890 bases of DNA from Escherichia coli (GTDB taxonomy: Bacteria > Pseudomonadota > Gammaproteobacteria > Enterobacterales > Enterobacteriaceae). The translations under genes and the position numbers were made by a program. Within the stretch, counting starts at the first letter, position 1. Every line of letters begins with the position of its first letter. A model generated the notes under the pieces. That model had not been told where the DNA came from and searched no databases. It worked only from the letters and a program-made list of their open reading frames with translations. Where the stretch lies: NCBI RefSeq assembly GCF_003334335.1, contig NZ_QOWQ01000141.1. One strand, 5' to 3'. This document shows, in pieces, positions 1 through 890 of this stretch.

Positions 1-77
<77 letters not shown>

Positions 78-106
78 CGGAGGATTCAGTATTCCCCGGA
101 CAACTC

Positions 107-112
107 AGGAGG
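107..112 (+). promoter_or_regulatory. Shine-Dalgarno (AGGAGG) for the CDS starting at 117
   Basis: Exact AGGAGG hexamer with a 4-nt spacer (AAAT) before ATG 117. Confidence 0.6.
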
Positions 113-116
113 AAAT

Positions 117-551
117 ATGCGAATTCTGAACTGTTATATGGCGAATGACAGCAAAGGCCATTTTGTTACGGCGAAAGAAGCTGCGAAGCACAACCGACAG
201 GACGTTTTGTGCTGTGTGTCCTGTGGATGCCCGTTAACACTTCAGCGGGGCAATGACGGACAACCACCGTGGTTTGAACATGACCAGATGACTGTCGCTG
301 AAAAAATCCTGCTGCGATGTACCTGGCTTGACCCGGCGGAGAAAGAGGCCCGTCGTTTGCATCTGCAGGGCATGACGGTTCCGGATTATACGGTGAAGGT
401 GAGAAAGTGGTTTTGTGTGATGTGTGACGAAGATTATGAGGGGGAAAAGTGCTGCCCACGCTGCGGTACCGGGGTATACAGCAGGGCGTGGGGGCGGCAG
501 GAGGTGCCGTCGGAAGATGCCAGGGCTGATAATCCGTTACAGAGGCTGTAA
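117..551 (+). CDS. Hypothetical cysteine-rich protein (144 aa) with zinc-ribbon-like CxxC / CPxCG motifs; function unknown
   Basis: ATG at 117 lies 4 nt after a perfect AGGAGG (107..112) and the frame runs to TAA at 549..551. The product has 11 Cys, with clusters CCVSCGC (aa 32-38) and CVMC-x8-CCPRCG (aa 100-117). The provided ORF track gives the same frame from a GTG at 48; I prefer 117 because of the Shine-Dalgarno. An alternative start is ATG at 138 (MANDSKG...). The frame is also open back to the 5' window edge, so an upstream start outside the window cannot be fully excluded. Confidence 0.75.
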   Translation: MRILNCYMANDSKGHFVTAKEAAKHNRQDVLCCVSCGCPLTLQRGNDGQPPWFEHDQMTVAEKILLRCTWLDPAEKEARRLHLQGMTVPDYTVKVRKWFCVMCDEDYEGEKCCPRCGTGVYSRAWGRQEVPSEDARADNPLQRL

Positions 552-787: not shown

Positions 788-838
788 CCAAATTCAACAG
801 GGATAAAATAGTGGTAAGCGTACAGCCTGAACCGTCTG

Positions 839-851
839 GTCAGAATCTGAC
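839..851. promoter_or_regulatory. 13-bp palindrome GTCAGA-a-TCTGAC; candidate operator for a dimeric DNA-binding protein
   Basis: Perfect 6-bp inverted arms around a single central base, in a region with no forward ORF leaving the window. It overlaps a weaker hairpin at 827..843, CTGA(a)CC-gtct-GGTCAG. Confidence 0.25.
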
Positions 852-864
852 GAATTAGACAAAG

Positions 865-876
865 TGGTGTCCACCA
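865..876. promoter_or_regulatory. 12-bp palindrome TGGTG-tc-CACCA; second candidate protein-binding site
   Basis: Perfect 5-bp inverted arms with a 2-bp spacer, 14 bp downstream of the 839..851 palindrome. Confidence 0.2.
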
Positions 877-890
877 AATAAGTAGTGGGA

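Follow-up and report, generated by a model that had tools for sequence, protein, structure and literature searches.

Introduction

Small proteins composed of the Pfam domains DUF7828 and Zn_ribbon_11, annotated in RefSeq as "zinc-ribbon domain-containing protein" or "putative zinc ribbon protein", are the closest described relatives of the protein analysed here. Zinc modules are also known from the IS91-family and Helitron/Helraiser HUH transposases, which have zinc-binding N-terminal regions; HUH-superfamily proteins are recognised by an HUH motif on a beta strand, a catalytic Tyr (YxxK) on a helix and a Rep-like fold. CoiA has an N-terminal region described as a putative C2H2 zinc finger (bioRxiv 10.1101/2024.02.06.579203), and the CoiA family has a central PD-(D/E)XK nuclease domain (PMC1189080).

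We analysed an 890-nt stretch of Escherichia coli DNA (the window), in which a sequence-only reading had picked out the ORF at 117..551 as the gene of an unrecognised, Cys-rich protein with two zinc-knuckle clusters, proposed to be a small zinc-binding regulator or nucleic-acid-binding protein, possibly acquired horizontally and not assignable to a named family.

Results

Identification of the zinc protein gene

The ORF at 117..551 (+ strand) translates into 144 aa followed by a stop codon. A Shine-Dalgarno sequence, AGGAGG, can be read at 107..112 (+), with the spacer AAAT (nt 113-116) placing it 4 nt before the ATG. The matching E. coli chromosomes are 99.8-100% identical to the window, and in strains EC11 and E2865 (loci L001 and L002) the product is annotated as RefSeq WP_001221615.1, "zinc-ribbon domain-containing protein". 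The Pfam search gave confident matches to DUF7828 (PF25165; E 9.3e-31, aa 4-89, model positions 2-86 of 87; nt 126..383, +) and Zn_ribbon_11 (PF11682, formerly DUF3279; E 1.7e-18, aa 93-128, model positions 1-36 of 37; nt 393..500, +). Translation, RefSeq annotation, Pfam and an AlphaFold2 model thus agree on a gene for a two-domain zinc protein, the downstream member of a paralogue pair, which we call ZnR-B.

We then aligned 40 diverged relatives with 23-83% identity to the window protein. All 40 matched both Pfam domains, and the window protein shares their length and motif pattern, with nothing that sets it apart. Among orthologues with unsaturated dS, dN/dS was 0.10-0.21, and the zinc-protein gene is therefore under purifying selection; the ORF is a real gene.

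The gene was found in 3,427 of the 5,426 complete E. coli genomes (63%), at up to four places per genome, and the window copy encodes a protein 100% identical to the widespread intact allele. Given this distribution, the RefSeq entry and the named Pfam domains, the protein is neither unrecognised nor rare, and the description of it as unplaceable falls away. On a wider scale, an exhaustive profile search of 1.84 billion representative proteins returned only 258 at E<=1e-3, nearly all of 110-160 aa. Searches of NCBIfam, PADLOC and PHROGs assigned no significant family.

The protein is thus already catalogued as a DUF7828 plus Zn_ribbon_11 member, and both Pfam families are uncharacterised. We found no paper on DUF3279, PF11682, DUF7828, WP_001221615.1 or its product name, and a literature search on the family names and neighbours gave no functional study or experiment on any member. 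The Pfam check proposed with the sequence-only reading therefore leads to named families, though not to a well-characterised one of known function, which was the outcome that would have counted against that reading.

Relatives in AFDB are labelled DUF3279, Ybl85 and similar, while many UniProt entries of the family (130-170 aa) bear the label "DNA-directed RNA polymerase, beta subunit/140 kD subunit", and one "Competence protein". The RNA-polymerase and "Competence protein" labels look like propagated misannotations. RpoB/Rpb2 proteins have domains of their own and exceed 1,000 aa; we rejected the RNA polymerase beta subunit identity for the 144-aa product, in which Pfam found no RNA-polymerase domain.

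The composition of the ORF is unusual in two respects. The 11 Cys among 144 aa (aa 6, 32, 33, 36, 38, 68, 100, 103, 112, 113 and 116), as counted earlier, have P about 2e-6 under an assumed Cys background of 1.2%. The several AGG/AGA/CGA Arg codons noticed before amount to 7 of 12, and at least 7 such codons out of 12 have P about 7e-4 under an assumed background of 15%, both backgrounds following the general composition of E. coli.

Truncated or frameshifted copies are frequent in E. coli, and the gene is accordingly dispensable. The E. coli copies fall into two allele classes, which are about 96% identical up to ORF nt 388 and then run into unrelated C-terminal tails (window 489-551 versus L024 5373-5408); the downstream DNA also differs by class, with an IS66-family element in one and an ISL3-family element in the other. 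This pattern in the sequences suggests that the 3' end of the gene has been exchanged by recombination or IS-mediated replacement. Contigs of a "Collinsella sp." metagenome-assembled genome (L006 and L012) carry the E. coli zinc gene at 98% identity, and most likely represent binning contamination.

Predicted zinc sites and structure model

The motifs named in the sequence-only reading all lie exactly where it placed them on the + strand: CCVSCGC at aa 32-38 (nt 210-230), WFEH at aa 52-55 (nt 270-281), CVMC at aa 100-103 (nt 414-425) and CCPRCG at aa 112-117 (nt 450-467). They are followed by an acidic C-terminal tail, SEDARADNPLQRL (aa 132-144, +). In the 40-sequence alignment, C33, C36, F53, H55, C100, C103, C113 and C116 are invariant, and C68, W98, Y107, G109, G119 and S122 are at least 90% conserved. 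The other Cys residues vary (C6 in 13/40, C32 in 4/40, C38 in 26/40 and C112 in 5/40).

By this conservation pattern, the two proposed clusters reduce to two sets of four residues. The N-terminal set consists of C33 (nt 213-215; 40/40), C36 (nt 222-224; 40/40), H55 (nt 279-281; 40/40) and C68 (nt 318-320; 39/40), all + strand, which suggests a C2HC site in DUF7828. The C-terminal set, C100 (nt 414-416), C103 (nt 423-425), C113 (nt 453-455) and C116 (nt 462-464), also +, forms two CxxC knuckles, C100-x2-C103 and C113-x2-C116, present in 40/40, and suggests a C4 zinc ribbon. The idea of two zinc-knuckle clusters accordingly survives as a two-site sequence signature, the C-terminal one being Zn_ribbon_11, while C32 and C112 drop out as poorly conserved, C38 is kept in only part of the family, and H55 and C68 are the likely N-terminal partners. 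The zinc-binding proposal made earlier is thus reasonable.

The confident AlphaFold2 model calculated with the 40-sequence alignment (pLDDT 88, pTM 0.58) has two domains. In the N-terminal domain, the modelled order is strand-strand-helix-strand-strand-strand-helix-helix, and the CxxC falls at a hairpin; strands 31-33, 39-43 and 52-55 and helix 62-65 are modelled in the part that bears the C2HC candidates. This domain is joined by a lower-confidence linker (aa 86-96) to a three-stranded ribbon, and knuckle-type hairpins are modelled at both CxxC motifs. The C-terminal tail (489..548, +; aa 125-144) is non-conserved, specific to this allele class and of low confidence, with block-mean pLDDT about 62-64 over aa 131-144. 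From the conservation and the model together, we infer that one structural zinc probably holds each domain together.

The PDB analogues of the model were only zinc fingers or zinc ribbons, with no close solved relative. A PDB sequence search with the single protein returned nothing below E 0.1, and the family profile gave only a marginal match to RPB9 (E 0.003); the protein resembles RPB9/TFIIS-type proteins in being small and in having two Cys-based zinc sites of similar spacing. The likeness to CoiA concerns its N-terminal domain, CoiA_N (PF25164), since both have a CxxC followed about 15 residues on by aromatic-F-x-H. The Pfam matches to CoiA_N are, however, sub-threshold (window protein E 0.39; relatives 10/40 at E<=0.1 and 0/40 at E<=0.001, best 1.3e-3), and the fourth ligand is Cys in the window protein but His in CoiA_N. 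Furthermore, the 144 aa are fully covered by the two zinc domains and give no PD-(D/E)XK Pfam match. The resemblance thus points at best to a distant kinship of a single small domain, and serves as a lead rather than as a membership.

The calculated pI of the zinc protein is 6.9 and the family median is 7.6. These near-neutral values do not speak for a classic basic DNA binder and lend no positive support to direct DNA binding; a role as a protein-protein adaptor is equally open.

Organisation of the window

The window begins with the terminal segment of an IS100 element (IS21 family; 1..77), which ends in CGTGACA and was identified from the istA/istB annotation of L001 and the junction sequences. 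It is directly followed by the duplicated target CGGAGG (78-83). In EC11, IS100 with istA/istB lies just upstream (L001 13118-15083), and the 6-bp CGGAGG is duplicated at both junctions; the target duplication of IS100 is typically 5 bp. Comparison of the junction with the uninterrupted locus of E2865 indicated that IS100 is inserted in the 3' end of an upstream paralogue, ZnR-A, and cuts this gene off, leaving at 78..129 (+) a 3' remnant that encodes GGFSIPRTTQEEICEF and the stop codon. In uninterrupted strains, as in L002, the intact ZnR-A has 133 aa and overlaps the start of ZnR-B by 13 nt, and the two proteins share 31% identity (E 1e-15).

At the other side, 262 nt downstream of the ORF, the left end of an IS66-family element occupies 814..890 (+). 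It begins with GTAAGCG, typical of IS66 ends, and its tnpA starts just past the window, according to the annotation of L001 and L002; this segment has a separate repeated match at L001 23823-23899. With ZnR-A cut by IS100 and the IS66-family element downstream, the window copy of ZnR-B is thus intact but stranded.

A promoter consensus scan of the window gave no sigma-70-like site, and Rfam gave nothing meaningful. Two terminator-like sites were detected in the window, no more than in shuffled sequences (1.2 expected). A remnant of the downstream YagK-like paralogue (described below) was considered for positions 552-813 and rejected, the one weak tblastn match (E 0.019) crossing stop codons. 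The same interval contains an inverted repeat at 664-728, with 17-nt arms (664-680 and 712-728; 88% complementary), a 31-nt loop, a T-rich run after it and a fold z-score of -2.0, which is a possible terminator of the zinc-gene operon. The inverted repeat extends across the start of a 106-nt repeat (708-813), whose second copy lies 14 kb downstream in EC11 in the same orientation with 100% identity (L001 29861-29966). This 106-nt segment carries no annotated feature and is present in 1-4 copies in 2,084 of the 5,426 complete E. coli genomes; it may be a recombination scar or the end of an element.

Genomic context and linkage to YagK/YfjJ

In strain E2865, the locus runs from tRNA-leuX and an integrase, through further genes, to a YagK/YfjJ gene ("inovirus Gp2 family"), zinc gene A, zinc gene B and the IS66-family element. 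The EC11 island continues with a CP4-type backbone consisting of a GTPase, Ag43, DUF932, antirestriction, JAB/RadC, DUF987 and a YeeU-type antitoxin. The module also occurs, at about 50% identity, on 340-kb conjugative Klebsiella IncFIB/HI1B plasmids, in the order YagK/YfjJ, AlpA, zinc A, zinc B (13-nt overlap), a second YagK-like gene and DUF2913. The same order is found in Hafnia, Superficieibacter and Yokenella. Lelliottia has one zinc gene after YagK/YfjJ, and in divergent metagenomic members the one or two zinc genes directly follow YagK/YfjJ and AlpA.

In the E. coli leuX island, on the Klebsiella plasmid, in Hafnia, Superficieibacter, Yokenella and Lelliottia, and in six contexts from metagenomes or assemblies, a YagK/YfjJ-family gene thus precedes the zinc gene on the same strand within a distance of two genes. 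This linkage was seen in every context of the examined sample that was uncut by a contig end or IS, a genome-contig profile scan with an alignment narrower than the 40-sequence one having contributed 7 loci only. The exceptions are decayed loci, such as that of E. coli B, with gene B truncated by an IS. YagK/YfjJ-family neighbours were assigned at L002, L004, L005, L008-L011, L013, L016, L017 and L021. AlpA stands beside or between the YagK/YfjJ and zinc genes at six of these loci (L004, L005, L013, L016, L017 and L021), and is absent from the E. coli leuX island. These results establish the zinc gene as a backbone component of CP4-type integrative islands and of some large enterobacterial plasmids, co-oriented with YagK/YfjJ and usually accompanied by AlpA.

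In Enterobacteriaceae, the zinc gene is usually duplicated as a translationally overlapping pair, with the 13-nt overlap found at L002, L004, L008-L010, L019 and L024. Several distant members have a single zinc gene and no pair, so that a hetero-pair is not obligatory. As for K-12, zinc genes were not found at the two loci checked, leuX and CP4-44: YjgZ at leuX (BLASTP E 0.11) and yoeG/yoeH at CP4-44 were tried as orthologues and rejected, with no HMM match at either locus.

The suspicion of horizontal acquisition is thereby borne out, by the integrase-bearing tRNA-leuX island, the IS flanks and the relatives on conjugative Klebsiella plasmids more than by the codons. As to the defence-island or prophage setting to be looked for among the neighbouring genes, the surroundings proved to be an integrative island with IS elements, and the neighbouring proteins tested, of the YagK/YfjJ family, gave no significant PADLOC match.

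The YagK/YfjJ partner and its fusions

We then examined the YagK/YfjJ neighbour itself (L002 13919-14488), which matches Pfam YagK_YfjJ_C at E 9e-48 and, weakly, REP_ORF2-G2P at E 3e-5. In its confident AlphaFold2 model (pLDDT 87, pTM 0.86), a strand carries HYH and a helix YLAK, and Helraiser is among the structural matches. The motifs and the model together show that this predicted structure, which is that of the neighbour and not of the ORF 117..551 product, has an HUH-endonuclease fold with HUH and Y (YxxK) motifs. YagK/YfjJ is an E. coli y-ome family, and we found no paper describing its HUH fold.

While both motifs, HUH and Tyr, are retained in YagK/YfjJ proteins of the upstream type, the YagK-like paralogues encoded downstream of the zinc genes (L004 7493-8059; L008 and L009 5426-6061; L010 5336-6040) lack both, which suggests, at the level of motifs, a pair of one active and one inactive HUH-like protein. 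Two fusions were found in the family. P0186 (454 aa) joins a complete DUF7828 plus Zn_ribbon_11 unit to a 313-aa YagK-like domain (L005 3220-4158) that matches the adjacent full-length YagK/YfjJ protein at E 7e-24, with the HUH and Tyr motifs missing. P0072 is a tandem fusion of two DUF7828 units. By their architecture, these fusions suggest a physical association of the zinc protein with YagK-like proteins, and of the zinc paralogues with each other. P0186 calls for caution, since it comes from a single 4.8-kb contig of one sequencing run and could result from a lost stop codon. Furthermore, because both the fused and the downstream YagK-like domains are without the HUH and Tyr motifs, the direct partner may be catalytically dead.

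The arrangement recalls the HUH transposases in combining a Cys-rich zinc module with an HUH domain, here in adjacent genes and, in P0186, in one polypeptide. It differs from them in that the zinc protein is usually made as a polypeptide of its own and the domain fused in P0186 has no catalytic motifs, and the zinc modules are likened by description only.

Discussion

We infer a role for the zinc protein as an accessory or targeting subunit of the YagK/YfjJ HUH module. In the proposed mechanism, the zinc protein, either by itself or paired with its paralogue, would bind the nickase-like YagK/YfjJ protein or its inactive paralogue, and would then act as a targeting or regulatory subunit on island DNA, possibly while the island is replicated or processed following AlpA-driven excision. 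In the window, the operon is damaged, IS100 having truncated the upstream paralogue and parted the ZnR-B gene from its upstream partners. Taken as a whole, the explanation of a zinc-stabilised DUF7828 plus Zn_ribbon_11 protein that serves as an accessory or targeting subunit of this module stands, in our judgement, evenly poised between right and wrong; the linkage to YagK/YfjJ is an association, not a mechanism. More tentatively, YagK/YfjJ as an HUH nickase, AlpA and the zinc protein or proteins might form an unrecognised replication/mobilisation module on CP4-type "cryptic prophage" islands and some IncF/HI plasmids, with the zinc proteins as specificity or control subunits of the nickase, a proposal that we regard as possible but doubtful.

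Small zinc-ribbon proteins are often regulators, and the zinc protein could instead be a stand-alone transcription factor on promoter DNA of island genes, for example those of integration and excision together with AlpA, independently of YagK/YfjJ. The AlpA-family regulators adjoining the zinc gene in six contexts, and its position near the integrase-proximal control region of the island, would fit such a role. However, Pfam found no helix-turn-helix or other recognised DNA-reading domain in the protein, its pI is near neutral, the fusion partner is a YagK/YfjJ-like domain and not a regulator, and the linkage to YagK/YfjJ is tighter than that to AlpA, which the E. coli leuX island lacks; we thus consider a transcription factor unlikely. 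A module for anti-phage defence, anti-defence or addiction, with the HUH-like nuclease as the effector and with sensor or inhibitor roles for the zinc proteins, appears very unlikely to us. The islands do carry antirestriction genes, toxin-antitoxin genes and defence cargo, and genes with the Pfam labels SMEK_N/CTD10-MC6-DUF2326, which we take to be defence cargo, lie between the integrase and the module at L021; overlapping small gene pairs also resemble toxin-antitoxin layouts. Yet PADLOC gave no significant match for the zinc proteins or for the YagK/YfjJ proteins, the zinc protein giving only PDC-S64 at E 0.063 among the PADLOC-DB 2.0 defence HMMs, and the module sits in the conserved island backbone, not in a variable cargo slot. 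In addition, a search of 50,697 phage records for homologues of the zinc protein found none, and this speaks against an anti-defence role carried by phages.

The window copy could, finally, be a functionless passenger, an intact ORF stranded between IS100 and the IS66-family element and decaying there. With the overlapping paralogue cut by IS100, the ORF is indeed parted from the YagK/YfjJ gene and from whatever promoter the operon has; the consensus scan found no sigma-70-like promoter in the window, and damaged copies are common in E. coli. This state is nevertheless distinctly unlikely, since the protein is identical to the widespread intact allele and the Shine-Dalgarno sequence is kept, and IS ends often provide outward promoters. 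Moreover, it concerns the window copy only, and not the role of the family, for which the accessory or targeting subunit of the HUH module remains our preferred reading.

The zinc protein itself is not a discovery, being a catalogued domain-of-unknown-function protein present in most E. coli. Its modest significance lies in the context, namely the linkage to the YagK/YfjJ y-ome proteins with an HUH fold, in the backbone of widespread CP4-type islands. If the zinc proteins are partners of an active nickase, three uncharacterised gene families would gain a testable function at once, and the "cryptic prophages" would seem to have DNA-processing machinery of their own. A replication/mobilisation module, if true, would explain how very common E. 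coli islands are processed or copied after AlpA-induced excision.
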